Source of the DNA: a bacterium
GTDB taxonomy: Bacteria > Hinthialibacterota > Hinthialibacteria > Hinthialibacterales > Hinthialibacteraceae
DNA length: 64,000 nucleotides
NCBI GenBank assembly: GCA_963662285.2
Contig: CAXXMV010000006.1
Location: 800,001 to 864,000, forward strand
Direction: 5' to 3'
Part shown: one piece after another, positions 36,461 to 62,313 of the stretch
Numbering within the stretch: position 1 is the first letter of the stretch
Layout of the letters: the number at the start of each line of letters is the position of its first letter
The notes under the pieces: generated by a model
Told to the model about the DNA's origin: nothing
Databases searched by the model: none
Seen by the model: the letters and a program-made list of their open reading frames with translations, nothing else
Translations under genes and position numbers: made by a program

Positions 36461-39400
36461 ATGCAAATGAATATTTCAAAAACCATTAAATGTGCGGCGC
36501 CTAGAATTGGAATTTACGTTGTATCTAGTTTTTTGGTATTAGGTTTCTTATTTTTCTTTTCATTTTCCAATCCGTCATTTGTTTATGCGGAAATGGAAAT
36601 ACAGGAATTGAATTTGTTCATCGCCAGCGATGAGGTTTTGACTGAACCATTACCGGTTACTCAGAATAAACCTATTCTTCGATCCCGAATGGTGATGCTC
36701 AATACTGACTTGCTTAAGGAAGTATGTAAAGAAGACCAAATCCCGATCTTTTTTAACCTCTTCACTGATGTTGCGCTCGAGGGGATTGTTAATGATAAAG
36801 TGATCCGTTCAGCCAGGAATTATACGTTGTTTGGATCTATTGATGATGATCCTAATAGTTATTTTGCAATCACCATGCATGAAGGAATTGTTTCCGGAGG
36901 GATTAGAACTGGAGACAATCAACATTATGAAATCGATTACGCGGGCGGTTCTCTTTATCAGCTCTGTGAAATCGATGAAGCGGAATATTCCAAACAATTA
37001 AGCATTCAAGACGTTCAATCACACCAGAAATTAAAGCAACGAGAATTATCCCAGGCGAAAGTACTTTCTCAAGCAAATAGTGATGAAGGAAACTTAGATA
37101 TTGCCAGTGATGAAGGAAGCACCGTCGATATTATGATAATGTACACGCCTCTCGCCCGAAGCAAAGCGGGTAGCGACGAAGCTATGGGCGCCGCGATTGA
37201 CCGGGCAATTGATGAAATGAATTTGTGTTTCAAAAACAGCGCTATCTCTACCCGGTTGCGTTTGGTCCATTATATGGAAATCCCGTTTACTGAACATCGT
37301 GATATCGACGGAAATTGGGAAGATCATGATGACCGGTGGATGATGGAAAATTCAATTGAGACTATTTTATATCGTGACCAATACAAGGCTGATCTTGTCT
37401 GTTTTTTTACGCAAGGGATAGGATCGGGAGTGCGAAATTGGCCATTTTCACTTGTGGGCTGGCATTCGGCAACTAGTGGAGGTTTCTTGTTTGCGCATGA
37501 AGTCGGCCATAATTTCGGGGGGCATCACGCAGTTGGCGATTCAGGGAATGGATCATGTCCGGGACTAGACCGGACGGATGGTGGAACATGCCCCTCTTAT
37601 GGGCATGGGTGGAACATATATGTGGGCGGACAGCGCTATACCACTGTAATGGCGTATCACCAAACCATGTGTAATCAACCTGGAACAGGTATTAAAATTC
37701 CTTACTATTCTAACCCGAACGTGATGTATAAAGGCGCCCCGACAGGTAATCCTATAGGACATCCAGACGAATCATTTGTTGCGAAAGTTATTGAAGACAA
37801 TTCTTATAATATGGTGAAATGGAAGGATTCGATTCCCAATCCCGGCGCCCCGCAAAATGTTCAGGCCACCAATGGTACGGATGATAAAGTTACAATTACG
37901 TGGAATCCGGTTGCGGATGCAACTCATTATCGCGTTTATATGGTGGAGAGTTTGACTGATATTCCCGAAGCCATCAGTCCATGGCAGGAAGCATTACGGT
38001 TTGAATATCAGGATATGGAATCGAATAAACCGTTCTATTTTTATGTCAAAGCGGCCAAAAGCCCGGTGGGGACGATTCCCAGTGATTTCAGCGCCCCGCC
38101 AGTTCAAGGAAAGCGCATATTAGCCTCGCCCCAAGAATTAAATGCCACTGATGGAGATTATTCGGATTCGGTTATCATTAATTGGAAGGCCTCGCCATAC
38201 GCCACGCATTACCGGCTCTATCGCTCGACTCAACAAGATGGAATTAAAGAACCGATAACAGATTGGATCAGGAGGCTGAGTTTTATAGATTGGGATGTGG
38301 AACCACATCAGCCCTATTATTATTGGGTGCAATCAGCCCTAGATGAAGAAGGTAATTTTGCCAGCCGTTACAGCGATGAAGAAAGTGGCTGGGCGACAAT
38401 AGCGCTTTCATCAGTAAGCGCGACGGATGGAGATTATTCAGACCGGATCAAAATAACCTGGAACAAAGTTAAAGGCGCATCCTATTATCAATTATATCGC
38501 GCTGAAAGCGAAGATGGCGCCAAGAATCCCATCAGTGAATGGCAACAAGGGAATACTTTTGATGACTTATCAGCCGCGCCCGGAAAACAATATTATTATT
38601 GGGTAAGCGCATCTAATAATAGTTCCGGATTTGATGCAACCGGATATAGCACCCCTAATACCGGTTGGAGGAATTTTGCAAAGCCATCCGGAATTAAGGT
38701 CAGTGAGGGAACCTATCCCGATAAAGTTGTTATCTCATGGAATGCCGTTCCAGGTAATCCCGCATACCGGATTTATATGTCAGAAAATTCAACTGGAGCG
38801 ATGGATGTCATAGAGTCCGGATGGATGGAAGGTACTGAATATGAGTATTCTGGCTCTATGCCTGCTGGTTATACATTTTATTTCGCTGTATCCGCTGTTA
38901 CCGATAAAAATGCAACCAGTGAAAGCGAGTTAAGCAACCGGGCATCCGGGTGGAGATATGTACCTCCACCTACCAATGTACAAGCAAGCGATGGCGCTTA
39001 TACAGACCAGATTCATATAACATGGAACGCAGCGTCAAGCGGTTCGATCTATTACAAACTTTTCCGGGCTGATAAAGCCAATGGAACGAAATATGCAATT
39101 ACCTCCTGGATTAGTAACCGTTACTATTTTGACCGTGGTCTTGATCCAAGCGAAAGTTATTATTATTACGTGAAAGCGGCGATTGATTCCAGTGGAACCC
39201 GCGCCAGCGACTATAGCCGGGGCAACGGCGGATCAACAGGACTTACGCCGCCAGAAAATGTCAATGCTACAAAAGGTACGGATACAAGCAAAGTCGCAAT
39301 TTCCTGGACCAGACTTTCCGGCACGCATTATTACCGTGTTTACCGGGCGGATGATATTGATGGAGAACGTACGCCTATAAACGACTGGACAGCGCAAATC

Positions 39401-42394
39401 TTACGATATGAAGATTTAAATGTCCGGGCGGGAGATATCCATTACTATTGGGTTAAAGTGGCGGCCAATAGAAATGGTCTCAATGAGAGTGCATTTAGCG
39501 AAATGAGCGTTGGATATAGGTATCTTCCCCCTCCTGAAAATATACAGGCTTCCGTTGGAGTTTACGAAGGTCTTGTAATTATTACTTGGGATGAACTTCC
39601 CGAAGCGACTCATTATATGGTGTTTCGTACTGATGAGCCTAATGGAAGCCGTAAAAGCATATCCGGCTGGCAAACAGAAACCACATTCAGAGACAAAGAT
39701 ACCATCCCGGGCCATACGTATTATTACACCGTAAAAGCAGCTGGCAGTGAAACCGGCGCCGGATTAAGCAGCCATAGCCAAAGCAATGGTGGATTCAGCC
39801 GGATGCCTCCTCCAGACCCAATAATGGCTTCTGATGGAACTTACGCCGATAAAATTCGGATTTCCTGGCAGAGTGTGGAAAACGCGCAATATTTCCAAGT
39901 TTTCCGAACGGAAGATCCAGATAACAATGAATTGAACCCCTTAAACGAATTCGAGAGAATCACAAGGTTTGACGATATGACGGCGGAACCAGGAAAGATT
40001 TATTATTACTCCGTTGCCGGCGCCAGAAGTCAAAGTGGCTATGGTGATACAAATATCAGTCAATCAAATTCTGGTTTCATATCTCCAACCGTTCCACAAC
40101 GGCCGGTAGTCAGCAATTCGGAGTATGGAGACAAAATTGTAGTCAGCTGGCCTGCAATCGCTGAAGGCGTCTATTACCGCGTCTACCGCAAAGATTCTCC
40201 TAGTGGAGAATTGGCGGCAATTGGAAACTGGCAGTTAGAAACATTGTATGAAGATACAGAAGTATTGGCTGGACCGACATACTATTACGCAATCCAGGCG
40301 GGGAGCAATGAAAACGGAGATCGTCCCAGCGATATCGGCGTAGCTTATGGAGGTTCCCGCAAGATGCCGCCGCCCTCCAATTTATATGTCGCGCATGGCG
40401 CTGATCCCAATGAAATCCTGATTACGTGGCAGAAAGTGGAGAATGCGGTTTATTACCAACTGTTCCGGTCAGACTCGTTGGAGGCGGAAAAAATTCCGGT
40501 TACTGGATGGCAGCGAGGAACTATTTTCAGAGATCAAAATGTTGAACCATTGAAAATCTATTATTACTGGGTGAAGGCATCGCGTAGTTTTTCCGGATAT
40601 AAAGATACTGATCTGACCGCGCCAGAAGAAGGCTGGCTGCAACCACCCGCTCCAACCAATGTGGTTGTCTCCAATGGAGAACATCTTGATAAAGTTAATG
40701 TGCAGTGGGATTCCACAGTCACCAATGGCTTCTATAGCGTTTCCCGGTCAGAAGCGATTGATGGAGAGAAGATGCTGTTAGGAAATTGGAAACCAACCTT
40801 ATCGTTTGATGATAAAGAAGCAGTCCCTGGAAAAACCTATTATTATTGGGTGCAAACTTCCTTGCGTGAGGATGGAGATGGTCCCAGTGACTTCAGTGAT
40901 CCGGTTACAGGTTGGAAAAAGATGCCCGCTCCTGAAATTCCATCGCAACCCAACCCTGCGAATAATAGCCATGACATCGATGTTTCTGTAAATCTGGATT
41001 GGAATGATAGCCAATGGGCGGAACGTTATTATGTGCAGTTATGGGAAAGCACGGAAACAGAAGGCGCCCTCAGAATTTTCTCTCAATTACCTGATGATCC
41101 AACTTTCAATTATCTAACCGAAAGTATAGTGATAATGCCTTATGATCTTAAATATGACACAGAATATTCATGGCAGGTGACCGCAGAAAACCAGAGTGAA
41201 ATAATCAAAGGACCGGTTTGGTCATTTACGACGATATCCAAAATCGATCCAACTGCTACTAATACGCCGGTATCCGCTAATATGCCGACGGCGACCAATA
41301 CGCCAGTGGCGACCAACACGCCAACCGCAACCTATACGCCAAATAATCTACCGACGCTTTATCCAAAACCCACGAATACTCCAGCTGATATTCCCACGGT
41401 CTATCCCAGACCAACGGATACGCCGACGCCAACGTTAACTCCTACTATTGCTGATCCAACCAGCACTCCGGTTCTGCAGAATCCTACGCCAACGCCTATC
41501 TCCTCAGATGAGATCATCGAACTGCTGGTTAATTCACCAGAGCCTTATCTTGGCCATATTTCATCGGTGAGCGGCGCTGATGAAGATGGAGATGAAGATT
41601 GGTATCAATTCCGTCCCTATACGACCGGCATTCATATTATTGAAACGCATCCGGTTTCCGGCCAGGATTCAATGCACACGATCCTTTATCTATACGGTCC
41701 CAATGACCGGACCAGTTTGATCTCGTTTGACTATACAAGCGGTTATGGCGCGTTTTCCAGAATATCCCATGTTTTAGATGAAGGCCAAACCTATTACATC
41801 ATGGTGATCGAAGAGGGCCGGGATGCTACAGGACATTATGCAATTGACGTGATCACCAGTATAGATATCCCTACACCCGTTCCTGTGGAACCGTCTCCTA
41901 CACCGAATTTAACAGGCGATTGCGTGGAGGCCAGTGATTTTTATATTTCAGAGGCTACAGGATTGTTGCAGGTGAATTTAGGTTCTGTAGAAATAACGGG
42001 AGCAATGATGGCGGATGGAAATCAAACGCCATTGCATATAATCCCGTCCGATGAGCCGGAACGCCTGCATATCGAAATCCCGTGGTCGGAACCACCAATG
42101 GAGCCTGCCACGATTCTATTTTCTATTGATACCTGTGGAGGCAATGCGCCTCAACAGGTTCACTTGTACTTGCATTATGAAAAACCGATTCGGATTTCAA
42201 CTCTGAATGATTTAATGATTGTTGCTTCTACAGAGGAGTATTCTCCACCAGAATCTGGTCAAATACAGCCCATTATTCTCAAAGATCCCGCCGGGATTCG
42301 TTTGATAAAATTGGAAAACTCAAAAATCATTATCCAAAAAATCTGTTGGCAATGCCAAGCCGAAACCGGTGTCGAAATGTGGAGTAATTATTAA
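36461..42394 (+). CDS. Giant secreted reprolysin/M12B-like zinc metallopeptidase with about 12 fibronectin type III-like repeats, Pro/Thr linkers and a PPC-like domain
   Basis: Signal/TM N-terminus, [11 protein letters not shown] zinc motif, TVMAY Met-turn, repeated P..V.A(S/T)DG.Y.D.I.I.W units and PTATNTP linkers. Confidence 0.85.
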
Positions 42395-42982: not shown

Positions 42983-43042
42983 AGCAACCCCTCCTAAAAA
43001 CAATATATCGAGGTGACTAATAGTCGTCAAATCTTTTTTTTA

Positions 43043-43224: not shown

Positions 43225-43483
43225 GAAAACTGTTAGAATATTATCCTTTATAATCATAAAATCAAGACTTCTAGGCGTCCTAAATGGCTTTTATGTAATT
43301 TTTGGGTGAATTTGATTATTTTCTTAACGATTCGCCCCAATCAGATTTTTTTTAAGATAAATTAATATGTTGCTATTTTATAAACTTTTTATATGTTTAC
43401 TCTATTATAAAATTAGGTTATATTAGTTACGTTAACGATATCTATAACGCAGAATTTTATATTCTAACCAAGTGAGAAGACCT

Positions 43484-44017
43484 ATGAAAAAGCAAGCCTT
43501 TACTCTTATTGAATTGCTCATCGTCGTGGCCATCATTGGAATCCTGGCTGCCATTGCCGTCCCTAATTTTTTGAATGCCCAGATTAGAGCCAAGATCGGG
43601 CGGGTTGAATCGGAATTCTCAACTATACGGACCGCATTTGAAATGTACCGCATGGATCAAGGCGGCAAATTACCCGATGCATGGGCGGTTGGATGGTATG
43701 GCGCATGGAAATCTTTTACTACTCCGATCTCTTATCTGCCAACCGTGCCTATCGATATATTTCAACCTAAACAAAAAGATCAATTTGTTAATGAGCATAA
43801 TTTTTATGAATTCGTTGAAGCCTATAAAGCTAAGACGGGTACCAACAAGGATTGGGCGCTGGCCAGTTTGGGGCCGGATCATCAAGATGATACCCTATCA
43901 TTCGGCGCTTATCCTAACTCCAATAAATGGGTCTCATATTCAACCTCAAACGGCCTGATCAGCGATGGCGACCTGCTTTTTGAAACCCATCCGGGCTTGA
44001 ATCCCGTCACATGGTAA
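43484..44017 (+). CDS. Prepilin-type N-terminal cleavage/methylation domain protein (pseudopilin/GspG-like)
   Basis: KKQA-FTLIELLIVVAIIGILAAIAVPNF, S.GPD and GD motifs. Confidence 0.88.
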   Translation: MKKQAFTLIELLIVVAIIGILAAIAVPNFLNAQIRAKIGRVESEFSTIRTAFEMYRMDQGGKLPDAWAVGWYGAWKSFTTPISYLPTVPIDIFQPKQKDQFVNEHNFYEFVEAYKAKTGTNKDWALASLGPDHQDDTLSFGAYPNSNKWVSYSTSNGLISDGDLLFETHPGLNPVTW

Positions 44018-47749: not shown

Positions 47750-48871
47750 ATGCGTAATCTTTATATCATTGCATTAACCACACTGTTTGTGCTTCCACTT
47801 TTCGCGCAGCAGGAAACCGGTGAAATAGTTCAAGAAATTATTTTTGATGACTATGAACCGGCTGGTTTTTCTATTCAGGGCAACATTACAGTCGATATGG
47901 ATATTTGGGATGAGCTCGGTTATGATGGTACGCCCGGTTGGGAATTATATATCGAAGGCGGCTCAACCAGTCCATTTGATTCGCAAATTTTCCGTAATTT
48001 AACTTATGACAGCACCGGGCAAACAATCTGGCGCTTGCAATACAGGATTTGGGCGAATTCTTCTCCCTTTCAGATTACTTCTTCATTGCGTTCTGTGGAC
48101 AGCCCCTATTTAGGCATTTATCACCATTTCCTCATTCCTGAAGGATTCGAGCAGCAATGGATACTGGTGGACTATGCTTTCGGACCCGCGAGTTTCTATG
48201 AAGCCTCACGCGTCAGTCTGCAATTCAGACTGGGTAACCAGCAGGAACAGACGCTGCATTTTGATGATATCCGTTTATTCAACAGCAACGTTTTGGCCAG
48301 TTCTTCCGGCTTCAATATTACACAGGATAAAGAACAGAACTTCTTTGATGGATATATCGATCCTGGAAACGATGAAATTCCCTACAACAATTCTTTTGAA
48401 TTGCCCGTAAGCAATGTAATCACCAAGGGCGTTTCAACTGAGCGTATTAAGGAAACAGAGGCGCCGGATGGAGTCCAGTTCCTACGAGCATCAATTACAA
48501 ATGCAGGTAGCACTCTTTCTGATTCTTCGATTGGATTGATTTGTCAGAATGACAGCAGCTACACCGGCGCCTATCGCCTCAATGTCAGCCTGCGCAGCAA
48601 TGCAGCGCCGCTGGAAATCAAAGGCGGGCTGGCTGGCGCCGTCGATTTATCCACTTCCAAACGTTCTGCGCCTGAGACTGTTGTTCTCAATGATCAAGAT
48701 TCCTGGCAGCGCGTCTCTTTTCTGATTCCCGCTGGTGATTTCACTGGCGAACACATCTATCCTTTCCTCGAATTTGGAGGCCAGGGTGAGGCTATAGTTG
48801 ATGTTGACCGGGTATTCATTATGAGAACGGATGAAGAAGTTACATCAGTACCAGGATGGGAAATGTTTTAG
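47750..48871 (+). CDS. Secreted protein with two galactose-binding/CBM-like beta-sandwich domains and the C-terminal W-motif
   Basis: Signal peptide; LHFDDIRL and VDVDRVFI strands; ends TSVPGWEMF. Confidence 0.7.
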   Translation: MRNLYIIALTTLFVLPLFAQQETGEIVQEIIFDDYEPAGFSIQGNITVDMDIWDELGYDGTPGWELYIEGGSTSPFDSQIFRNLTYDSTGQTIWRLQYRIWANSSPFQITSSLRSVDSPYLGIYHHFLIPEGFEQQWILVDYAFGPASFYEASRVSLQFRLGNQQEQTLHFDDIRLFNSNVLASSSGFNITQDKEQNFFDGYIDPGNDEIPYNNSFELPVSNVITKGVSTERIKETEAPDGVQFLRASITNAGSTLSDSSIGLICQNDSSYTGAYRLNVSLRSNAAPLEIKGGLAGAVDLSTSKRSAPETVVLNDQDSWQRVSFLIPAGDFTGEHIYPFLEFGGQGEAIVDVDRVFIMRTDEEVTSVPGWEMF

Positions 48872-49518: not shown

Positions 49519-51114
49519 TTACGCTTCGGTTACGTTATCCCATTCTATGCCCAGTTTTCGAGCGGCGAAGCCGAACTCTTTGAGATAATCGCCATAGCAC
49601 ATCATCCAATGCGAGTCGCGTACTTCATGCAGCAACTTCTGCCACTTGCCTTCGATCTTGACATCCTGCTGTGAGCGGCAGATTTCATAGAACGGATTAT
49701 CTTCTACTGCGCCTCTGAATCCCAGCCAACGACCACGGGTGTATTCGGGATCGATGAAGGTCAACTGCTGTCCGACGGGAATCTCTACCTTAGGCGCTGA
49801 ACCGTAGTCGGATTCTTCATGAGTCATTACGATGGTCGGTTCGTAGCGGTCGCCATTCATCCTGCGGGGAGCGGAGCAGTGAGCGCAGGTCACGATACCT
49901 TTATGGGGGAAGGTGGAGTTATGCATAAAGATCGGCGTACCGGTGATGTGCCGCATCAACACTCCCGCTGGCATAACCACGAAATCCGACTCGCAAAAGG
50001 CAATCAAACCTTCGTCATTGAGTAGACCAAGCGTCAGGCAGGCGGTGGTTTTGGACATGGGAATAACCACATCCATACAGCTTTTGATAGTCATAGCTGG
50101 CGCGCCGTTTTCGATCATCAGCTCTTTGAATAGTTCGTAGAGCATAAAGCCGTTTACCACAAAAGATTCATCAGTCTGCAAAGTGGTTTGGGGCAGGGAG
50201 AGATAGCGCTTGGTCCACTTACGGGCGCGGTCCATACGTTTTACATCGTTCAATGCACTGGTGATCCGTGGTTCGAGTTGATCGTAGGTAACCTCGACCA
50301 GATCCATTTTGAATTTATCGCGTGCGATTTGAGGAGCGTCGCCAGCGTATTTTCCCCAGACGCCGCCTATGGCCATCATCTTTGAACCAACCAGATTATG
50401 GACGCCATATAGCGCCCGCAAACGCCATTTCAGTTCATCCATATCGTCAACTACTACATCATCGACGTGCATGTTTTTCAATCTTGGCGGATCGCCCTGA
50501 CGGAATTCTTCGCGGTCGGTTTTGAGGTAGGCGACGCTCAATGATTCATACCAGTAATAAACCGGGCCGGATTTATGTCGCACGAAGATCAGAGTATTTT
50601 TATCTTCTGAAACGCAGGCTTGCAGAGTGCTGCCTGAACCTGACGCCGGATAGACGATGAATATATCAGCGTCTGCTTTATGAGCGCGTTGGGCGTCTTC
50701 AACTGTTTTAACTTTAACAGGCTTCAAACATTCGATGGGGAACTCGGTTTGCTTGGCCAAATCTTGCAACTCATTATCAATGCGCTGCACTTCCTCATTA
50801 GCGGACTGGTCAGTCAAGACGCCGCCCCATGAGCGCCAGGAGCGTTGCTTTCTGGGAGTGGCGACGGTATACATCAGTATAGGTTGAATGCGCAGCGGCT
50901 TGCCCCATTGCACAAAATCTTGATTCGGATCCCACCCATCCAAAGCCCATGCAGGTCTTTCGGTTTTCAATCTTGATTGACTCCAGGCCTTACCTGAAGC
51001 CAGTGTCAAGGCGGCTACAGCCGAGCCGCTTTTAAGGAATGATCTCCTGCTATGCATGCAGCAGCTTCCACTGCACATATCGTCCATGTCATCATGATGT
51101 GAATGATCGCTCAT
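49519..51114 (-). CDS. Tat-exported L-fucose/L-arabinose isomerase-fold protein, paralog 1
   Basis: SRRSFLK signal; TIKSCM, ACL.LG.LND.G..AFCESD, CAHC, THEES and CRSQ. Confidence 0.7.
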   Translation of the reverse strand: MSDHSHHDDMDDMCSGSCCMHSRRSFLKSGSAVAALTLASGKAWSQSRLKTERPAWALDGWDPNQDFVQWGKPLRIQPILMYTVATPRKQRSWRSWGGVLTDQSANEEVQRIDNELQDLAKQTEFPIECLKPVKVKTVEDAQRAHKADADIFIVYPASGSGSTLQACVSEDKNTLIFVRHKSGPVYYWYESLSVAYLKTDREEFRQGDPPRLKNMHVDDVVVDDMDELKWRLRALYGVHNLVGSKMMAIGGVWGKYAGDAPQIARDKFKMDLVEVTYDQLEPRITSALNDVKRMDRARKWTKRYLSLPQTTLQTDESFVVNGFMLYELFKELMIENGAPAMTIKSCMDVVIPMSKTTACLTLGLLNDEGLIAFCESDFVVMPAGVLMRHITGTPIFMHNSTFPHKGIVTCAHCSAPRRMNGDRYEPTIVMTHEESDYGSAPKVEIPVGQQLTFIDPEYTRGRWLGFRGAVEDNPFYEICRSQQDVKIEGKWQKLLHEVRDSHWMMCYGDYLKEFGFAARKLGIEWDNVTEA

Positions 51115-51201
51115 ACTAATTGTCTCTCCCATATATATAAGGCTGAAAGTTTATCTATGATTGTTCCGAATTATTATGAAACCAATTGACATATTAGTTA
51201 T

Positions 51202-51331: not shown

Positions 51332-52897
51332 TCAGGTCTCTTTGACTATCTTCCATCCCATGCGGTCGGCTAAATCAAAAATGGGTTCTTTAAGGTCGCC
51401 GTAGGTTGTGACGCGGTGCCAGCCCCATTGATCCCACTGGGAGAAGAGTTTTTCGATATCTCCGACAGGTTCGACAGCTAGTTTGGTGCGGCATGCCCGG
51501 TCATCAGGATCATTGGCAACGGTCTTGCCTTGATGGAAGATAATTTCTTTACGCTGTTGGTTAACTTTTATAGATGTGGTCATATAACCCAATGGAAGCA
51601 TCGAACGCACTGAAGCGCCCTGGCGGTCTTCTGAATGAGTCATAATTGAGAACGGATTGGTTTCGCCATCTGGTCCAAAAACTTTATTTGAAGCCACGCA
51701 ATGGGCGTAGATAATCTGACGTTTGGATGTATCGATAACCGGATCGGAGATGTAACCTGGGCGTCCCTGAGTCAACGCGGTTACTGCTACCATTGATGCG
51801 GTAGAAGATGTATCGCATTCACAGGCGCCGATCAGGCCTTCGTTATTCAGTTCGTGGAATCCCAGGCAGGGATAGGCGTGGATGTGTCCACCGTAGAATC
51901 CTCCCAGGCAGTTGATGGTGATGGCGTTGGCGTTATGTTTTTTGAGAACTTCTTTCATGCCCAGATACATGGCGGCGGAGGTCAGGAGCGTCTCTTTGGA
52001 TACATCAATGACGTCTGTGGCGTTTCTGAACCATTCTTCTGCAACCTCATGGCTTTTATCTTTATCGGCTTTCTCCCAGGCTTCATTTACTTCGGCGAAA
52101 GTAATAAATTCCATGGGGATGCCGAAGATATCTTCAGCGGGTTTAGCATTCTGATCGAGAACCGCCAGAATCCTTGATTCTTTCAAGCGCTTTACGCATT
52201 GTTCTGTAGAAAGAAGCGACAGGGGGTCATCTATACAACTGAGGTCGCCGCATTTGGGGGTATGAGCCATCCGCACTTGCTTGGTGGCTGCCGCGAAATC
52301 AGCGGGTGATCCGCCTCGTTTAACTACTTCAAAGCATTTAACCGCGTTGACCAAGTCCTCAAATTTGGATGAGGCCACGAAACCCAGGTTGGGCGTCTTG
52401 TCACGCAGGAAACGCGCGGTGTAAACCAGGAATCCGCCGCTGCCGCCATATTGGAAGTCGGCGTAGAGAGTCGGTTTGTTAGAGGTTGCGATGGTTTGAA
52501 CTACCCGGTTCCAGCAGTTCAATTGGTAGACCAGGTAACCGTCAATGTTCTCTGAACTATCTTTGGCCAGGATCGCTTTGGCTTCTTCTTCGCCTTTGGC
52601 CATAGAGGTGACAAACTCGAAACCGGGGAATTGTTCGGCTAGTTGTTTATTTGTTTTTTCCATGAAAGGCTTAAAATCGAAACCAACGTTAGGCCAGTCC
52701 GGTCCGGGTTGAACCTCAGCATGTAGTGAATAGATGATGCGGATTTTAACTTTGGATTTGTTCTGTTCCGCATTTAGCTGGCTGGGATTTGCCAGGATTC
52801 CTGCTGCTCCAGCTCCGGCGATGCATCCGGTTCTAAGAAAATTACGGCGGTTCATTGGGCATTTAGCGCAATTCAATTGCGTCTTCTGAAAGTTCAT
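51332..52897 (-). CDS. Tat-exported L-fucose/L-arabinose isomerase-fold protein, paralog 2
   Basis: NRRNFLR signal; TINCL, YPCLGF.ELN.EG..GACECD, YAHC, THSED, CRTK and GWHRV..YGD. Confidence 0.7.
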   Translation of the reverse strand: MNFQKTQLNCAKCPMNRRNFLRTGCIAGAGAAGILANPSQLNAEQNKSKVKIRIIYSLHAEVQPGPDWPNVGFDFKPFMEKTNKQLAEQFPGFEFVTSMAKGEEEAKAILAKDSSENIDGYLVYQLNCWNRVVQTIATSNKPTLYADFQYGGSGGFLVYTARFLRDKTPNLGFVASSKFEDLVNAVKCFEVVKRGGSPADFAAATKQVRMAHTPKCGDLSCIDDPLSLLSTEQCVKRLKESRILAVLDQNAKPAEDIFGIPMEFITFAEVNEAWEKADKDKSHEVAEEWFRNATDVIDVSKETLLTSAAMYLGMKEVLKKHNANAITINCLGGFYGGHIHAYPCLGFHELNNEGLIGACECDTSSTASMVAVTALTQGRPGYISDPVIDTSKRQIIYAHCVASNKVFGPDGETNPFSIMTHSEDRQGASVRSMLPLGYMTTSIKVNQQRKEIIFHQGKTVANDPDDRACRTKLAVEPVGDIEKLFSQWDQWGWHRVTTYGDLKEPIFDLADRMGWKIVKET

Positions 52898-53894: not shown

Positions 53895-56108
53895 TTATTG
53901 TAATTCCCAACCAGAGACGCTAGTAGATTTCATATCCAACGCTTTTTGGACGGCGGCGGCCATATCGAGGCGGCCATAGCCATATTGCTCATTGAAGCCA
54001 TCGGCATTATAAGGCAGATCGCCGATCTTTATGGAAGTTTCCTTCAATACATCCAATAATTCATCAACCGATAAATCGGGATTAGCGGTAAGCGCCAAGG
54101 CAACAACGCCACTGGCCAACGGGCAAGCCGATGAGGTTCCGCCAAAGGTTGAATCGTAAGCTGAAACGGGATCATATCCCAAACCCGGAGCAGATGCATC
54201 CGTAGTCGTAATCGACTGATTGTATGATCCACCATCACTGGGAGCGAGAAACATAATTTCCGGTCCCCATTGGCTGTATGAAGAACGAACATCCTGATCG
54301 TTGCTGGCGCCAATATTGATAACTTTTGGATGTAGATTTTCTCCTATCAGTGGAGATATATTCTCAGGCATATCTCCACTGAATGGTTGTTCTAAAAGAA
54401 TCTCTTCATCCTGTTCATCATATCCAAGAAACACATATCCGTCTGCTTCTTGACCATCAATGAGAATACGGAAAAAGTCCTTATCTGCTTCTGAACTTAT
54501 TCTAAAATTAACATACAGATAAGATTCTGCATCAAAATCAGTTTCCCAAACCAATACGCTGGACTGATTATCATCTATATCACCGCTTTGAAATACATAA
54601 CCATCTTCGGTTAAATCTGTTGGTATGATCTGGAACGGGGCATCTCCCTTGCTGCTTAATTCATCAAGAAAATCAGTTGAATCAGCGTAAATTATTACGT
54701 AATTACTCTCATCTTCAATATCATCCAAATAGGCAGATCCAATCATAACCATATCTTCGCCGGATGATCCAGAAGCATCTTTTTCATAGACGAATTCGAT
54801 GGTGTGTTGACCCGGTTCCAGAGAGTAATCTGCTTCAAAGGTATAGAATGAACTGGCGTCGTTGCCTGAGGCGAATAAAACGGGGACGCCTTTATCTCCA
54901 CGTTTCCCCTGATCAGATGTCGCGAAATCCAGTGCTGAAAAAACCAGATCGGCCTGATCTATGCTTCCCCACGAATTGTTAATTACATCAGCGTATTTCG
55001 CTGCATAGCGAAGCGCGTCGGCAATGGATGACTCTACTGCCAGATCATCTTCTTCAGTAGGTTCTTCTTCACTACCAAAATATATTTTAGCGGGAAGAAT
55101 AGCGCTGCCAAAAGAAGCGCCTACAACGCCGATAGCATTATTTCCAATAGCTGCCGCTACTCCAGCTACTGATGTTCCATGCGCTTGTTCTGCATTATCA
55201 GGACTGGGGTCATTATCATTATTGCCGAAATCCCAGCCATGGATATCATCGATCAGGCCGTTGTTATCATCGTCAACGCCTTCCGTTCCAGCGGCTTCGA
55301 TGGGATTGGTATAGATATTTAAGTCAGGATGGTTAATGTCAACCGAGTCGTCGACTATCGCAATAACCGTATTGGCGCTTGGCATCTGCAAATCCCAGGC
55401 GGCTTCGGCGGAGACATGGGCGCCGGGCTTACCGCCGTTTTGACCAGTGTTATTAAGATGCCATTGCTTAGGATACATGTAATCATTGGGCTTAAAACGT
55501 TTCTTAATCTGTTTGGCGAAGTTTGGATTAGACCAGACCACGTCAGCATCATTCCATAAACTATCAGATACCGTAAAAGGATCGCGGGATGCATCAAAAC
55601 CTAGTATGAATTGATCATCAGTGAATAGAAGCGGCCGGATAATCGTCATATCATAGCGGTTGGCGATTGATTCGATATTGGCGCCCGGAGCTACGCATAC
55701 GATAACTTCTGGTCGTGGATAGACTAAGAGTTTGCTTCCAGGCCGATGGTATACCGGATAGATGAATTGCGTTTGATCGATTGATTGCAGAGAGTTTTGC
55801 TTTGGTTGAGGCGCGCTTGAATCATTGGTAGTGACTACTGTAAGTCCTCCGCCGATATAGCGCGAACTGGTTATGTTCTGCATTTGCGATTCGAGGCTTT
55901 TGATTGATTGCAGCGCTCTGCGTTTCGTACTTGCGCTATCTTTTTCAATAGAAACTCCAACGACATACTTGTTGGGAACCTGAATCAAGCGGTGAGTTTT
56001 TCCACTACTCTGATAGGTAGTTGTTTGAGCATACGAAAGAGAACTTGCGAACATGAAAATCATACAGGTAGAAGTCAATAAGAGAGTGGATTGAAAAAAA
56101 CGCTTCAT
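53895..56108 (-). CDS. Secreted S8 subtilase with an inserted beta-sandwich domain and the C-terminal W-motif
   Basis: Signal peptide; IVDDSV, HGTSVAG, ASGN and GTSSACP; ends TSVSGWELQ. Confidence 0.9.
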   Translation of the reverse strand: MKRFFQSTLLLTSTCMIFMFASSLSYAQTTTYQSSGKTHRLIQVPNKYVVGVSIEKDSASTKRRALQSIKSLESQMQNITSSRYIGGGLTVVTTNDSSAPQPKQNSLQSIDQTQFIYPVYHRPGSKLLVYPRPEVIVCVAPGANIESIANRYDMTIIRPLLFTDDQFILGFDASRDPFTVSDSLWNDADVVWSNPNFAKQIKKRFKPNDYMYPKQWHLNNTGQNGGKPGAHVSAEAAWDLQMPSANTVIAIVDDSVDINHPDLNIYTNPIEAAGTEGVDDDNNGLIDDIHGWDFGNNDNDPSPDNAEQAHGTSVAGVAAAIGNNAIGVVGASFGSAILPAKIYFGSEEEPTEEDDLAVESSIADALRYAAKYADVINNSWGSIDQADLVFSALDFATSDQGKRGDKGVPVLFASGNDASSFYTFEADYSLEPGQHTIEFVYEKDASGSSGEDMVMIGSAYLDDIEDESNYVIIYADSTDFLDELSSKGDAPFQIIPTDLTEDGYVFQSGDIDDNQSSVLVWETDFDAESYLYVNFRISSEADKDFFRILIDGQEADGYVFLGYDEQDEEILLEQPFSGDMPENISPLIGENLHPKVINIGASNDQDVRSSYSQWGPEIMFLAPSDGGSYNQSITTTDASAPGLGYDPVSAYDSTFGGTSSACPLASGVVALALTANPDLSVDELLDVLKETSIKIGDLPYNADGFNEQYGYGRLDMAAAVQKALDMKSTSVSGWELQ

Positions 56109-56298
56109 AAAAATCTCCTTTGGAATATAAATATGGTACAAAGTACGCATAATGCTTAATATTAACAACTGTTAATAGTATCGGCAATTTTATGATTCTA
56201 CTTGAAATTTCAGGTAATGAGAATATTTATTCAAGCGGAGTCGTGAATTAAACTGATTCCATGCTAATATGTATCAAAAATAACGGTGGAGGAAACCG

Positions 56299-56670: not shown

Positions 56671-56695
56671 GCAAGTATTGGTTTTGCAGGCTTTT

Positions 56696-57280
56696 TTATT
56701 CAGATAATTCATTCCACTGACGGTCAGGGAAATCAAATGATATTTCCTGGCCGTTTCTTGTTGCAGTCAGCGTGAACGGTGGATTGGGGGGATTGTCAAT
56801 TTCCCATTCGAAGCCGGTAACATCCGCTTGGAGAGAAATTTGTTCTTTAGTCAGGGTGATCGATGCATCTGGAGTGACATTGCCGTTTAATTTCGTATCT
56901 TTTCCTCCCGTGATGGATGCAGCATTGTTCACGATCAGGAATATTTTATCGTCTCTCAAGGCTTGATGATAAGCGAACATGGCATTGATTTCATGATCCG
57001 ATGAAGCAACCAGTTTGGCTGGTCCTTGCATCATGTTACGAATTTTCGCAACTAGATTGGCGTCTTTAATTTCTTTGAAACTTTCTTCGAAATCAGAACC
57101 GTTCTCTCCATGACATTCAGCGCAGGAATCTGCAAAAGATTCAATGGGACCAACGTATAAGTTGACTAACTTTCCCTGGTTTGTTTCAGCTGAATCAAGG
57201 CTTTGCCGGTTGCAGCCGTATATCAAAATCAAGGCAATAAACAGGCTGGTTAATGTCACGAGTCGCATAAAAGGTTTCAT
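56696..57280 (-). CDS. Monoheme c-type cytochrome lipoprotein
   Basis: Lipobox IYG-C; CAECH heme motif; candidate distal Met. Confidence 0.8.
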   Translation of the reverse strand: MKPFMRLVTLTSLFIALILIYGCNRQSLDSAETNQGKLVNLYVGPIESFADSCAECHGENGSDFEESFKEIKDANLVAKIRNMMQGPAKLVASSDHEINAMFAYHQALRDDKIFLIVNNAASITGGKDTKLNGNVTPDASITLTKEQISLQADVTGFEWEIDNPPNPPFTLTATRNGQEISFDFPDRQWNELSE

Positions 57281-57515
57281 TATTATTTTTCTTTGATTAT
57301 TTACCGTTGCATCATTTATATTTGCATCGAATGACTGGCGGTACATGAGTTCTATTGCACCATAAATAGAGTGTTGGCGTACAATGGCAAGAGCCGGACG
57401 ATTAGGGATTTTACCGTTTTATCCAATATCCATCAATAGCGATGCATAACGGCGTCAGGCAGTATAGTAATGAGTTACTATACAATTTATCCATTCTATT
57501 TTCCTTATGTTTGTA

Positions 57516-57905
57516 TTACTTGTTTGTTTCAGTTGGAGGCATGGATTTCAGGCGCGCCGCCGGGAGGCGTTTGAGGCTTTGGCTGCGTGGGTCGACTTCA
57601 ATGCCTAAGGATTCCAGGGCGGTTACACCCAGGATTGGTTCGGCGTCGTCGGCGCCGAAAATTATGGTTGAGCCTACCAAGTCACCCATGAACTCGATTT
57701 CCGCTGTTGTGATATCCAGTTTCACTTCGCTGCCGTCGGCAAGTTCATAAATCCGCTTGCCGCGTGGTTCCAGCCCGATTGCCCGTAAATGCTTCGCCGG
57801 AACCAGGCAATCGACCGCCCCCGTATCAACCAGAAACAATCCATCCCATGACTTGTCTAATTGAGCTGGATTGTGGACTGTTACTGTGACGTGCGGCATT
57901 GACAT
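57516..57905 (-). CDS. Clan AA (retropepsin-like) aspartic protease
   Basis: LVDTGA, LADG and ILGVTALE. Confidence 0.85.
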   Translation of the reverse strand: MSMPHVTVTVHNPAQLDKSWDGLFLVDTGAVDCLVPAKHLRAIGLEPRGKRIYELADGSEVKLDITTAEIEFMGDLVGSTIIFGADDAEPILGVTALESLGIEVDPRSQSLKRLPAARLKSMPPTETNK

Positions 57906-58060
57906 TTTTCTTTCTCCAATTGAGACTTTGCGGAACTCCAATTATAGAATTTTTACTCCATAAAGCCAAATTATCATAAGTATTCTTGTCTCAAAAAATC
58001 ATTATACAGCAGTATTACGAAGAAAAAGCAACTATTTTATTGATTGCGATAAACTTATTG

Positions 58061-58687
58061 CTAAATGTTTTGCTTATTTATGATCAAGTCGAGTGTTTGT
58101 GGAATTCTCTTTATTATAATCTCACCTGATTTTGTAATGGTTAGTTTTACTTTCTTTCCAATGTAGAAAGCATCAAAAATGAACATTCTATCTTCATACT
58201 TTATCCCGTTTCTGGTAAACGAATATTTAACAGCCATAGAAGTGTGAAATCTATATTTCTTTTCAACAGTTTTATTGGGCGAGACATCACCGAATTTATA
58301 TGATTGTTTTGGGGATGATAAACATATATCCTTGATAACAATATCTGACTGATTCTCAAAAACAGCTGTGCTTGTGTAGACTAAAGAACTAAATAAGATT
58401 GAGATGCCTATTGAAATTGGAATATTAATGATCAAAACGAATAAAGCCTGTAGAGTCTTTTTTGGAAGATTTTCAATATTTCTTTTTCTGGCTTTTTTGT
58501 AAGATATTGTCAGGCATATTCCGCCAATGAAACATAAAGGTAGGCCAAAATATAAATGTGGTAAACATGTTAAAATTAAAATTAGCAACAAACTGTTTTT
58601 AACAAGCAAGCATGCAAGGATCAGGCTGATACTGATGCATAATGGTATCAGTCCACACACTAAAGCGGTTCGATATAATTTATTCAT
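58061..58687 (-). CDS. Hypothetical membrane protein (3 TM helices plus a small soluble domain)
   Basis: Overlaps the HNH gene stop by 8 bp; AT-rich. Confidence 0.6.
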   Translation of the reverse strand: MNKLYRTALVCGLIPLCISISLILACLLVKNSLLLILILTCLPHLYFGLPLCFIGGICLTISYKKARKRNIENLPKKTLQALFVLIINIPISIGISILFSSLVYTSTAVFENQSDIVIKDICLSSPKQSYKFGDVSPNKTVEKKYRFHTSMAVKYSFTRNGIKYEDRMFIFDAFYIGKKVKLTITKSGEIIIKRIPQTLDLIINKQNI

Positions 58688-59270
58688 TATCTAAGATTTC
58701 TCTGGTTTGCTTGGGAAACTTTTTTATCAACCACTTAAGGGTTTCAACCTGGTCGCTGCTTTTTGCCCTTCTAATCTGTATCAAAAGTTTTTGCAAAGAA
58801 GGTCGTTCTAAGGTTAGATTAGAGGCGCCTTCATTGCAGATTGAACATAGGGCGCGAAGGTTTGAAGGATCATCTGTTCCACCCAGGGACTTGTCAACGA
58901 TATGACCTATATGGAGCCGGGTCTTTCGTGATGGATCATAAGGGTGAGGTTCGCTGGCTACAGCGCCGCACATCTGGCAAGTGAAACCGTTTCTATCCAG
59001 CACAAAAGCGCGTGTTTCTTTTGAGATACTGCGTTCAAATGCTGGCTGAGGATTTGGGTTTTCAAGAATATATTGGCCGGGTATCAGGTCACTACGGTCA
59101 TTGTGAGTTTGGATTTGATATCCTTCTTCAGTGCGCAGTTCTCTTACCCTTCGCGCCCATTCAGTTATTCCACCAGCCACTTCACGTAATTCATTAGAAT
59201 CCATGATTCTGCCAATATTGTCAAGAAAATATTCTCTTAGTTTTGTTCTTGCGCCTTTCTTTTTTGACAT
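58680..59270 (-). CDS. HNH endonuclease with an N-terminal winged-helix-like domain
   Basis: EWARRVRELR.EEG; CQMC...HIGHI.DKS.GG....NLRALCSICN. Confidence 0.85.
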   Translation of the reverse strand: MSKKKGARTKLREYFLDNIGRIMDSNELREVAGGITEWARRVRELRTEEGYQIQTHNDRSDLIPGQYILENPNPQPAFERSISKETRAFVLDRNGFTCQMCGAVASEPHPYDPSRKTRLHIGHIVDKSLGGTDDPSNLRALCSICNEGASNLTLERPSLQKLLIQIRRAKSSDQVETLKWLIKKFPKQTREILDNE

Positions 59271-59282
59271 AACGTGATTCCT

Positions 59283-60242
59283 TTATCCTGCTAAAGTGAA
59301 TATTTTCCTCTGCGATAAGCACTTGTGTATTTGTCTAGAAACCGCATGTGCAACAGGTGGAGGGAAAGCATTACCAATTTGACGATAAGCTGGAGTCTTT
59401 TTACCAGTGAAATGCCAGTCATCAGGAAATCCTTGAATTCTTGCTACCATTTCAACGGTCAATTTTGGCATACCTACAAAGTTTTTTTCAGGTGGTTCAT
59501 TGGCGATGCCCATTCCATCAACGCCAAGCGTCGCCCATGCTCGTTTGGCGCGTGTGGGACCCAAATCAGGTCCACCGTGTTTTCGGGATCCACCCACAAT
59601 GGTAGGCCCAATATCATCGGCTTGTTTCATCCATTTCTTGGCGCCTTTCCAATTACATGACGCCATTAGGTCATAAAGTAATTCACCAATGCTTGGAGGG
59701 TTATTGTCATGAATTTTTGGCCAGGAAAAAAGTTCAGAAATATCTTTGCGGATAGCAACAATAACAAAACGGGGTCTTAACTGTGATACGCCAAAGTCAG
59801 AAGAGTTAAGCAATCTCCAATCGACAACATAATTCATTTTTTCAAATTGCCGTTTCAACTTAGAGCGATAGTTCTCAAAGACCGCATCTAAAAATCCACG
59901 TACATTTTCTAACATCACTGCACGGGGTCGACATTCATCAACAAGACGCAATGCTTCGGGAAATAAGTCACGTTCATCCTTTTTGCCTAATTGCTTACCA
60001 GCTTTTGAAAAAGGGGGACAGGGTACGCCACCTGAAAGAAGATCGATATTTTTATAGTTAGTTGCGTCAAATTCTCTGATATCAGCTTCGATTACATTCC
60101 AATTAGGTCTGTTATATCTAAGGGTATTACAACAATGCTTGTCAATTTCAATCAATGCCTCTGGTTCAAAACCAGAACGCTCAAGGCCTAAAGCCTGCCC
60201 ACCAGCCCCGGCGCAGATTTCTATACAGTTTAGTTTTTCCAT
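59283..60242 (-). CDS. DNA (cytosine-5)-methyltransferase, NgoMIV/NaeI-like
   Basis: EICAGAGG, PCPPFS, ENV, Q.RPR and RQIGNA. The TRD segment VGGS.KHGGPDLGPTR is recalled as typical of GCCGGC-specific enzymes. Confidence 0.9.
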   Translation of the reverse strand: MEKLNCIEICAGAGGQALGLERSGFEPEALIEIDKHCCNTLRYNRPNWNVIEADIREFDATNYKNIDLLSGGVPCPPFSKAGKQLGKKDERDLFPEALRLVDECRPRAVMLENVRGFLDAVFENYRSKLKRQFEKMNYVVDWRLLNSSDFGVSQLRPRFVIVAIRKDISELFSWPKIHDNNPPSIGELLYDLMASCNWKGAKKWMKQADDIGPTIVGGSRKHGGPDLGPTRAKRAWATLGVDGMGIANEPPEKNFVGMPKLTVEMVARIQGFPDDWHFTGKKTPAYRQIGNAFPPPVAHAVSRQIHKCLSQRKIFTLAG

Positions 60243-60437
60243 TATATTCCGTCTTGAATTCCCCTTTGATTCTGTTCGGCAACAAAGAAATCCGCTTTGA
60301 GCAGTTCACCATATCAAGTCTCCGGCTCTGTCAAAGGTAGATGACTTCTCCAATCGAAAATCTTATCCTTGCATCACTACGATTTTAGCATTAACGCTGC
60401 ATAAAAGTCAATTAAAGTTGTTATGCTGCTAAATGCT

Positions 60438-60473
60438 AAAAAAATCCCGGCGGATAATCACCGCCGGGATTTT
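60438..60473 (-). terminator. Rho-independent terminator
   Basis: aaaatcccggcgg-ataatca-ccgccgggatttt. Confidence 0.85.
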
Positions 60474-60495
60474 CATAATTACATGGTAGGTGTTA

Positions 60496-62313
60496 TTAGA
60501 ATAGTTGCCATTCAGCAACAGGTACGGGCTGTTCAAGGGCTGATAGGTCCCAGTGGGCGTCGCGGCTGCTGAAGCTGGAGCGGCTTGGGAAGGCGAAGTT
60601 TAATCCTGGGTCTTTGACTTGCATTCCGATGTGTCCATAGGAATCGTAGCCGGTAAACATGTGTTCGATATCAGCGATATCTACTGAGAACTCGGCGGCC
60701 CAGGTGTTGGCGTCGATGATGTAGGCGTTGTATTGGAATGAAGGAGCGTTCCAATCCGTTCCGCCTGCTGTGTCGGGAGAGATGTCATCCCAGTATCCAG
60801 CTGAATCGCCGGCGAATTTTACATATTCCTGACCGTCCACCGTTCCGGGATTGGGTGCAAAGACGATTTCCCAGGAGTCGGTCTGCCATTTGAGCAGAGT
60901 ATCGTTTTCGGAGTCGGTTACCAGTGAACTGGTGTCGGGATCGACCAGAACAAAGGCGCAATATAGTTTGACGCCATCGGTCAGGATGTATGAGCGGGTC
61001 ATGTTGTAAGGCTCTCCAACGGGTAGGTAGGAGTCGTCTTCCCATTGGGAAATCTCGTTAGCCGATTCGGCGTATACTGCGTCAAGCGCGTCGTCGGTTA
61101 CGTCGGGAGCATCTGCAGGATCAATGCGGTTAACGGTGTAGTTAGGATCAACCGGTTCACTAGGAATGGTTATGATTTCGAGTTGGTCGATATAAATAGC
61201 CGCTTCAAAAGCGTCTACAGGTTCGCCGCCCACGCCTTGGATGGAAATTTCCCAACCAATCAGGCTGCCCCGGTTGGCTTCTATATCCGGATGAGCGTCC
61301 CAGGGATTTTCTTCAAAGGCGCTGAAGGATGCTGTGATGGTAGTCCATTCAGCCGATTTGGGGCCGACCGCGTCAAGATAACGGATCACTTCGCCAGTGT
61401 CGTCGCGCAGCTGGAAGACGATCAATACCGCATCGTCGACCAGGTTGTCGGGGTCGCCTTTGACTTGATAGCGTATCGCTTGATCAGCGTTAAAAGCGAA
61501 TGGCGCTTGATTCATCGAACGTACGCCAGCGTATCCCCAGATGCCGCCGTCAAAGCTCATAGCCAGTTTCATGGAGTTGGCGCCTTCAACGCTATCGGTT
61601 GATAATTGGGCTGAGCCTAGCCCTGAAGTTCCCGTTCCGGCGTAAGCGTTGGTGAGGGCGGTTTGATTCTCATATTCATAATCATCCAGCACCTGGTCGC
61701 CGCTGGCGGCGGGCGCTTCGTCGTTGATCTTTATGTTGTCGAGATAGATGGTGGCTTCATAGGGATCAATAACTTCTCCCCCAACGCCCTGAACCAAAAT
61801 TTCCCAGTTAACAATGTCTTCCAGATTGGCTGATACATCAGGATTGGCGTCCCAGGGGCTGTCTGCGAAAGCCCGGAAAGGAACTCTGATTGTTGTCCAA
61901 GCCGATGATTTGGGGCCGGTGTAATCCAGGAAGCGGGAAATTTCACCAGCGGAGTCGCGAAATTGGAAAACCAGTACTACGCCATCATTAGTAAAGTTTT
62001 CTGGATCGCCTTTGATGTCATAGGTTAAGACCTGACCATCCTGGAAAGAAAACGGTTCTGTTTCAAATGCTTGAACTCCGCAACTGCCCCATATCGCGCC
62101 GTCATAGAATAGATATAGTTCCATGGCATGAGAATCGGCGTCGAGATCGGCGAGATAGGCCTCGCCTGCACCAAGCCAGTTGTAGTTGTCAAAAATCATT
62201 CCGGGGTCTTCATACTCGAAGTCATCCAGGATGACTTCTTGAGCCTGCGCATCAGGTAAAAACGCCAGGCATAACAATAAGGTTGCGCCATACAAATAAC
62301 TTTTTGCTATCAT
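60496..62313 (-). CDS. Secreted protein with two tandem CBM11/CIA30-like domains, a CBM9-like domain and the C-terminal W-motif
   Basis: Signal peptide; internal duplication LDD(F/Y)EYE..KGDP.N...FQ.RD..GE..R.LD..GPKS..WTTI; ends VPVAEWQLF. Confidence 0.75.
   Translation of the reverse strand: MIAKSYLYGATLLLCLAFLPDAQAQEVILDDFEYEDPGMIFDNYNWLGAGEAYLADLDADSHAMELYLFYDGAIWGSCGVQAFETEPFSFQDGQVLTYDIKGDPENFTNDGVVLVFQFRDSAGEISRFLDYTGPKSSAWTTIRVPFRAFADSPWDANPDVSANLEDIVNWEILVQGVGGEVIDPYEATIYLDNIKINDEAPAASGDQVLDDYEYENQTALTNAYAGTGTSGLGSAQLSTDSVEGANSMKLAMSFDGGIWGYAGVRSMNQAPFAFNADQAIRYQVKGDPDNLVDDAVLIVFQLRDDTGEVIRYLDAVGPKSAEWTTITASFSAFEENPWDAHPDIEANRGSLIGWEISIQGVGGEPVDAFEAAIYIDQLEIITIPSEPVDPNYTVNRIDPADAPDVTDDALDAVYAESANEISQWEDDSYLPVGEPYNMTRSYILTDGVKLYCAFVLVDPDTSSLVTDSENDTLLKWQTDSWEIVFAPNPGTVDGQEYVKFAGDSAGYWDDISPDTAGGTDWNAPSFQYNAYIIDANTWAAEFSVDIADIEHMFTGYDSYGHIGMQVKDPGLNFAFPSRSSFSSRDAHWDLSALEQPVPVAEWQLF

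Follow-up and report, generated by a model that had tools for sequence, protein, structure and literature searches.

Why should four secreted proteins with unrelated bodies end in nearly the same nine residues? The question is raised by a 64,000-nucleotide stretch of a bacterial genome (contig C6, positions 800001-864000; hereafter the window), in which four exported proteins share a short C-terminal motif built around a tryptophan at position -4, which we refer to as the W-tail. We report here that this tail recurs on 174 proteins of the source genome and is portable between unrelated bodies, and we consider it reasonably likely that it acts as a portable C-terminal address or recognition tag for the cell envelope.

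On the plus strand of the window, Pfam matches identify an exported M12B-type metallopeptidase with fn3 repeats (36461..42394 within the open reading frame (ORF) 36386..42394; likely start at 36461, MQMNISK...), which ends in TGVEMWSNY and a stop codon (42365-42394). It is followed on the same strand by an exported 373-aa protein without a Pfam family (47750..48871) that ends in TSVPGWEMF and stop (48842-48871). The minus strand encodes an exported S8 subtilase (53895..56108, ORF 53895..56168, likely start at 56108) with the terminal sequence TSVSGWELQ and stop (53895-53924), and an exported CBM_11-containing protein (60496..62313, ORF 60496..62541, likely start at 62313) that ends in VPVAEWQLF and stop (60496-60525). 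All four ORFs and tails lie exactly where a preliminary description of the window had placed them, and the Pfam assignments (M12B with fn3, no family, S8, CBM_11) bear out its view that the bodies are unrelated. It had also called two of the proteins CBM-like; this holds for ORF 60496..62541, which contains CBM_11, and is unverified for 47750..48871, which lacks any Pfam match.

How far does the motif extend beyond these four proteins? The source genome (G000; 7.29 Mb, 44% G+C, 8 contigs, 92.5% complete) contains 11,847 ORFs of at least 80 aa, of which the longest non-overlapping ones (n = 5,367, covering 88% of the DNA) were kept as the gene set and the remaining 6,480 used as a shadow-ORF control. 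Tryptophan occupies position -4 in 249 of the kept ORFs (4.6%), compared with 1.7% of the shadow ORFs and 1.5% tryptophan overall. A simple regular expression matched 130 kept ends and 2 shadow ends, its 186 hits among 2,133,422 internal positions predicting 0.47 matches at ORF ends. A nine-position matrix with a threshold of 10 bits—reached by all four window proteins, including the metallopeptidase and the CBM_11-containing protein—retrieved 174 of the 5,367 ORF ends versus one shadow end, and its 27 internal sites in 2,015,348 positions translate into 0.07 tails expected at ORF ends. The shared tail noticed in the window is thus real and belongs to a far larger set, comprising ~3% of the proteome (about 1 in 30 proteins) and roughly 1 in 10 exported proteins.

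The 174 tails follow the consensus T-[SPAD]-V-x-[DNE]-W-[SEM]-[LI]-[YFH], or in general form T-x-V-x-[DNE]-W-x-[LI]-[YFH]-COOH, and are preceded by positions (-10 to -13) enriched in proline, glycine, glutamate and aspartate. Most (147) are flush with the protein end, 26 carry one trailing residue (mostly E, D, N, K, R or Q) and one carries two. At the DNA level, the pattern T.V..W.[LIVMF][YFHL]-stop returned 66 matches in the genome, among them the tail of the 373-aa window protein, as opposed to a single match for the reversed-pattern control; codon usage varies among these copies. One strong internal copy was noted as well: VPVNDWSIH (22.7 bits) at residue 656 of the protein encoded at C2:537179-539590, followed by 139 more residues, which may represent a fusion, a read-through or a frameshift.

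Proteins that carry the tail are overwhelmingly of the exported type. A signal-peptide heuristic was positive for 154 of the 174 tail ORFs versus 1,717 of the 5,193 others (33%; odds ratio 15.6, Fisher p = 1e-50), and most of the 20 heuristic-negative tail ORFs visibly have signal peptides; the enrichment among signal-peptide proteins for which the preliminary description had proposed a genome-wide check therefore exists. Counted from the cargo side, 144 of the 1,385 signal-peptide-like ORFs without a further hydrophobic segment bear the tail. The earlier impression that lipoprotein and twin-arginine translocation (Tat) ORFs are free of it does not hold as a strict absence, since a crude test calls seven tail ORFs lipoprotein-like and three Tat-like genome-wide. 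None of 47 sulfatase ORFs, a presumed periplasmic control, has the tail, a comparison without statistical power as just 11 of them are signal-peptide-like (p = 0.30).

What precedes the tail differs from protein to protein. With the tail removed, the bodies of the 174 proteins grouped into 87 BLAST components (66 singletons) and the 120 aa immediately before the tail into 112 components (83 singletons; largest n = 12), so that no C-terminal domain is common to them. This agrees with the initial observation that the tail comes with neither a transmembrane helix nor a common domain of ~70 aa. The motif follows directly upon the ends of CBM9-like, LTD, CotH and many other domains. Pfam annotation of 47 tail proteins encoded outside the window left 22 without a family and assigned the others to CBM9 (six proteins), Peripla_BP_6 combined with Ig/cadherin domains (three), WD40 propellers, giant beta-helix/TIG/PD40 proteins, an MtrC-like multihaem cytochrome, LRR, LamG, DUF3160, CotH plus LTD, an S9 peptidase and a tyrosine phosphatase, among others. 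The tail is, in short, portable between unrelated bodies and confined to exported proteins.

Comparison of orthologues shows that the tail is maintained while the proteins around it change. Among the 30 closest relatives of the window subtilase (P0003-P0032, 37-100% identity), 27 end in the tail, with T/V, V/I, W, [LIV] and [YFH] kept and the remaining tail positions variable. The three exceptions continue with a Pro/Thr linker and ~300 extra residues and do not retain the motif inside the chain; the tail was lost rather than internalised, which points to a strictly terminal position. A second tail protein, devoid of any known family, has eight relatives (itself included), all of which end in the tail or in a degenerate version. 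Judged from these alignments, the tail is strictly terminal and kept by selection as orthologue bodies diverge. As modelled by AlphaFold2 from a 32-row alignment (mean predicted local distance difference test score (pLDDT) 83), the subtilase has a mean pLDDT of 52 over its last seven residues, which pack on nothing, so that the tail is predicted to be exposed at the chain end.

Distant S8 homologues end in a hydrophobic transmembrane helix plus an Arg-rich tail or in the C-terminal domain (CTD) of the type IX secretion system (T9SS), and in the tail protein C6:430175-434026, 11 residues separate the C-terminus from the end of a choice-of-anchor Q domain (NF041518, 37.7 bits). This domain class is named for the alternative anchors that it precedes, according to the available part of a preprint (10.1101/2023.03.06.531300). 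Together, these two observations place the tail at the 'anchor position' of known sorting signals. Separately, distant S8 homologues from other lineages (P0061, P0074, P0080, P0083, P0092, P0107 and P0035-P0054) share the recurring ends ...[FY][FY][RK][VL]x[VL]xP and ...NNGSTQHFIIDVTGYFQ, which may be further C-terminal modules.

Which bacteria possess the tail? The phylum of the source genome is probably Hinthialibacterota (OLB16): an orthologue at 52% identity comes from an organism that NCBI lists as Candidatus Hinthialibacter antarcticus. Two metagenome-assembled genomes (MAGs) that appear to lie within the phylum bear the NCBI label Candidatus Omnitrophota, which fits the former placement of OLB16 in Omnitrophota as given in the accessible text of PMC9324843. 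Matches to the DNA pattern occur in all 35 genomes of the phylum, at 1-66 per genome compared with 0-5 for the reversed control, and are most numerous in family f1 (13-66), with 4-31 in families f2 and f3 and 1-18 in f4 to f6. When 185,579 species genomes were scanned with a strict pattern, 37 loci matched; the genomes with multiple matches were in-phylum MAGs and MAGs labelled Candidatus Sumerlaeota. In this second phylum (75 genomes so labelled), 47 genomes contain matches and 12 contain 6-18 (controls 0-2), while a block of 18 genomes (G046-G063) is almost free of them, making the distribution patchy. Here, twenty loci taken from three tail-rich genomes yielded the consensus TT.V.DW.L[YF], on bodies that mostly lack a BLAST homologue in the source genome. 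Thus, the earlier term 'lineage-specific' stands in that the distribution is restricted, and has to be widened to two phyla as NCBI labels them, with patchy occurrence in the second. No substitute recurrent tail emerged in a 400-kb sample of a tail-free second-phylum genome (304 ORFs, 62 of them signal-peptide-like), which suggests that tail-free clades manage without one. The literature searches made, with supplements outside their scope, returned no description of the tail.

The distribution relates to that of exosortase. Within the own phylum, all eight genomes of families f5 and f6 encode exosortase and none of the 27 genomes of f1 to f4, the source genome included, does so; tail counts are 2-18 (median 5.5, n = 8) with the enzyme and 1-66 (median 28, n = 27) without it. 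In the second phylum, all nine exosortase genomes have zero or one tail match, and exosortase is found in none of the 12 tail-rich genomes. The distribution of the tail is thus complementary to that of exosortase, as would be expected of a functional alternative.

We infer from these data both that the tail sorts and by which route it might do so. If the tail is an envelope address, its carriers would cross the inner membrane by the Sec pathway via their N-terminal signal peptides. A short linker rich in Pro and Gly would then present the tail as the free end of the chain, where an envelope receptor could read it and decide the post-Sec fate of the protein, be it passage over the outer membrane or retention there.

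What could such a receptor be attached to? The source genome encodes eight secretin genes, at least three clusters resembling a type II secretion system (T2SS) and a TPR-secretin cluster. In one T2SS-like cluster (C1:564048-566764), two neighbouring ORFs share the secretin between them, with N0 and Secretin_N in one (485 aa) and the secretin domain in the other (414 aa). A GspC-type PDZ protein was absent from the four secretin clusters annotated with Pfam. The genome further contains 118 pilin-like genes, recognised by a prepilin N-terminal methylation motif; most of their products measure 180-250 aa and have a conserved SNG.xS.GDI near the end. All 75 second-phylum genomes show expansions of similar scale (10-131 motif matches). 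One of the 118 genes (43472..44017, plus strand) lies in the window, 1.1 kb downstream of the metallopeptidase gene, and may be part of the tail system. Pilin-like genes are the sole family clearly enriched beside tail genes in this genome: they adjoin 23 of the 174 tail genes versus 71 of 1,136 other signal-peptide ORFs (6.25%; odds ratio 2.3, p = 0.002) and 3.7% of all genes, with 22 of the 25 adjacent pairs on the same strand. In the second phylum, a pilin-like gene adjoins 3 of 23 tail genes (binomial p about 0.01-0.03). Because no machine for protein export over the outer membrane other than the secretin-based systems was found here, and because the pilin-like linkage occurs in both phyla, the likeliest single route—though one more probably wrong than right—would be a secretin/type-4-filament (T2SS-like) machine on which a pilin-like protein serves for docking, much as the N-terminal signal of TcpF is handled.

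Pilin-like genes aside, within three genes on either side of tail genes, HSP20 genes (5 of 5, at two loci) and genes combining FGE-sulfatase and HZS_alpha domains (11 of 24) recur, neither with an obvious link to the tail, and the 36 tightly coupled neighbours of tail genes (gap of at most 60 bp) yielded no further recurrent family. The HSP20 genes form triplets at C6:1386610-1387493 and C8:307686-309246 that adjoin giant tail proteins of 1,862 and 1,149 aa, the former with a lamin-tail-like domain at its end; one HSP20 subfamily has five members, each at most three genes away from a tail gene. The FGE-sulfatase and HZS_alpha genes belong to a group of ~24 large exported or lipoprotein-like proteins (e.g., C4:95316-99296 and C8:471880-475086) with an HZS_alpha middle part and a C-terminal FGE-sulfatase domain.

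Several results weigh against the tail being a sorting tag, or against the proposed route. No reader was found among the candidate machines profiled, and an effect of the tail on protein location is something we infer. The preliminary description had proposed phylogenetic profiling as a way to find co-occurring transporters or proteases; across the 75 second-phylum genomes, none of the candidates profiled tracks the tail. GspK (PF21687) is present in 62 of them, tail-free ones included, the prepilin motif pattern in all 75 (10-131 each, regardless of the tail), the S41 protease (PF03572) in 74, and homologues of the TPR-secretin C8:420422-423595 in 73, the latter two with or without tails. The pilin-like linkage amounts to a roughly two-fold enrichment, leaving 87% of tail genes without an adjacent pilin-like gene. 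A complex prediction for tail protein A1 (residues 27-441) and the soluble domain of the pilin-like protein A2 (residues 34-198), encoded 24 bp downstream, scored 0.01 against a mark of 0.32, with the fold of the partner uncertain, and counts neither for nor against such docking. In each phylum the exosortase contrast comes down to one or two clades, so that much of the complementarity may simply reflect relatedness, and the four own-phylum genomes of genus g27 possess both exosortase and 6-18 tail matches. The one or two additional, mostly polar residues on 27 of the 174 tails sit uneasily with a reader that grips the terminal carboxylate. On the technical side, genes were called by a crude longest-ORF rule and signal peptides by a home-made heuristic.

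Crude gene calling is also all that speaks for the notion that the tail is functionless, whether it arose by chance or from sequence composition, through faulty annotation, or because a single recombining DNA cassette has spread. We regard this as next to negligible: tails number 174 as opposed to 0.07 expected, with one match in 6,480 shadow ORFs and 66 DNA-level matches versus one for the reversed pattern; codons differ among copies; orthologues at 37-80% identity keep the tail; and the same tail sits on different bodies in the second phylum. More serious is the idea that the tail is a ligand for the PDZ domain of some protease or chaperone in the periplasm (CtpA/Prc-type S41 or HtrA/DegP-type) and serves processing, activation, chaperoning or turnover instead of sorting. 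Like PDZ ligands, the tail is terminal with a hydrophobic or aromatic end, and the source genome encodes three HtrA-type proteases, one CtpA-like S41 protease with PDZ, RseP and a secreted beta-helix protein with a C-terminal PDZ domain. A PDZ domain, however, usually reads four to six residues, and the conserved threonine at -9 and valine at -7 lie beyond this reach; of the 174 tails, 147 are flush with the protein end and 27 have residues past the aromatic end. Since S41 proteases occur in nearly all second-phylum genomes irrespective of the tail, they cannot explain its patchy distribution, and a conserved degron on 3% of the proteome would have no obvious rationale. On balance, we think a PDZ ligand fairly unlikely.

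Alternatively, the tail could be a direct, receptor-free anchor whose Trp/Leu/Tyr end sticks to outer-membrane lipid, lipopolysaccharide or a surface glycan and thereby keeps secreted proteins on the cell. Tryptophan and an aromatic end residue are typical of membrane-interface binders, and the invariant tryptophan, the aromatic last residue, the surface-like cargo (binding modules, adhesin-like giants, a multihaem cytochrome) and the predicted exposure of the tail in the AlphaFold2 model would all fit. Yet nine residues with three or four hydrophobic side chains would provide weak affinity, and the strict polar threonine at -9 and D/N/E at -5 point to a specific protein reader, rendering such an anchor quite unlikely in our view. 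That the tail mimics the beta-signal of outer-membrane proteins (OMPs) and is read by BamA is very improbable. The aromatic last residue, the terminal position and the presence of one Omp85/BamA are compatible with it. The likely OMPs of the source genome, though, end in the canonical hydrophobic-x-Y-x-F (...GKLTYRF, ...VMYKF), a register other than that of the tail (W at -4, L/I at -2, mostly Y at -1); the cargo consists of soluble domain families rather than beta-barrels; and Omp85 is single-copy, without an extra paralogue. The preliminary description had already judged a signal for the beta-barrel assembly machinery (BAM) unlikely, and both the differing OMP ends and the non-barrel cargo support that judgement.

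Returning to the tail as an envelope address label, its implications would be considerable. The C-terminal sorting signals known from bacteria depend either on a membrane helix together with a dedicated sortase-like enzyme, or on a folded domain together with the T9SS. The W-tail has neither helix nor folded domain, and nonetheless marks ~3% of the proteome in two uncultivated, polymer-degrading phyla. An address label of this kind would define a new cargo set and imply an unknown envelope machine. Substrate choice by secretin-type systems is a long-standing open question; were the tail a secretin-read tag, this question would become testable, and the tail would constitute the first proteome-wide linear signal for secretin-dependent export. 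Extending the reading further, the tail might be the cargo signal of an undescribed sorting pathway that reads free ends in the periplasm, comparable to the reading of PTS1 or KDEL in eukaryotes, and either hands folded proteins to a secretin/type-4-filament machine, perhaps docked by a pilin, or fixes them on the surface, replacing exosortase/PEP-CTERM in Hinthialibacterota and part of Sumerlaeota; this combined scenario is possible, albeit doubtful. For practical purposes, the tail offers an easy way to predict which proteins of these genomes are extracellular or at the surface, and its patchy distribution over 110 genomes provides a ready contrast for locating the reader.

Further features of the window deserve mention. 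Two adjoining minus-strand ORFs (49519-51132 and 51332-52897; 537 and 521 aa) have leaders of the twin-arginine type (RRSFLKSG and RRNFLRTG), and the former has an N-terminal stretch rich in His, Asp and Cys. Another minus-strand ORF (59283..60242) resembles, by eye, a C-5 cytosine DNA methyltransferase (GGVPCPPFS and ENV motifs); together with two ~200-aa ORFs directly downstream on the same strand, it may form a restriction-modification unit (58061-60242).

How, then, does the W-tail compare with known sorting systems? NCBIfam sorting-signal models (E <= 1) matched none of the four whole window proteins and none of 97 C-terminal 70-aa pieces; an existing named model, which would have made the motif real without being new, therefore does not cover it. 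Searches for cognate sorting enzymes in the source genome, which included neither rhombosortase nor myxosortase, yielded no exosortase (PF09721) and no sortase (PF04203). The tripartite systems comprise LPXTG/sortase, PEP-CTERM/exosortase, GlyGly-CTERM/rhombosortase and MYXO-CTERM/myxosortase, as listed in the available portion of a preprint (10.1101/2023.06.07.544157). The W-tail resembles these signals in that it is portable and, within one lineage, forms the very end of many Sec-exported proteins that are otherwise unrelated. It also follows a choice-of-anchor domain, occupies the place at which homologues carry such signals, and is abundant where exosortase is absent. In contrast to them, it consists of the last nine residues (plus zero to two) and has no transmembrane helix or basic cluster. 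As it cannot be held in the inner membrane, it would have to be read as a soluble peptide.

With the T9SS CTD (type A, TIGR04183/PF18962), the W-tail has in common the C-terminal position, the diversity of secreted proteins in diderm bacteria and the lack of a membrane helix. That CTD, however, is a folded domain of ~70-100 residues that acts as an export and attachment signal, and no shared domain precedes the W-tail. T9SS markers were likewise missing: SprA (TIGR04189) exceeded the cut-off in none of the 35 own-phylum genomes and PorV (NF033710) in none of these 35 or the 75 of the second phylum, and Por_Secre_tail produced no match over the cut-off in the source genome, with one sub-threshold match in the whole genome.

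The OMP beta-signal and the DegS-activating Y-x-F tails are terminal and close with an aromatic residue, and their free end is recognised in the periplasm. The W-tail shares the terminal position and the aromatic last residue, and differs in register and residues from the OMP ends of the source genome as well as in its non-barrel cargo. A relation to the WxL cell-wall-binding domain was considered and rejected: no WxL family is among the Pfam matches of 51 tail proteins, and the likeness is limited to a W-x-[LI] triplet. The WxL domain of Gram-positive bacteria spans ~150-190 residues and contains two WxL motifs.

Another parallel is offered by the TcpF/CofJ secretion signals of type IVb pili. 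According to the accessible parts of three reports (PMC9565799, PMC10120004, PMC6048534), such a signal is a flexible terminal peptide hooked onto a minor-pilin trimer; it is N-terminal, belongs to one protein per pilus operon and is known from crystal structures. The W-tail, too, is a short, flexible, linear terminal peptide on Sec-exported soluble proteins, and a secretin/type-4-filament machine could read it. Tail genes adjoin pilin-like genes about twice as often as other exported ORFs do. Unlike the TcpF/CofJ signal, it is C-terminal, proteome-wide (174 proteins) and known from sequence, and the numbers of pilin-like genes do not track it.

Outside bacteria, the peroxisomal targeting signal PTS1 and the KDEL signal are very short, soluble C-terminal address peptides that need a free end and allow receptors to sort folded proteins. 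The plant C-terminal vacuolar sorting determinant (ctVSD), for its part, is read by the PA domain of its receptor, as stated in the available text of PMC12796998. The W-tail matches all three in being a very short soluble C-terminal peptide. The analogy is one of logic: those signals are eukaryotic, serve other compartments and have no sequence likeness to the W-tail. As far as its sequence tells, then, the W-tail is unlike every catalogued bacterial sorting signal.

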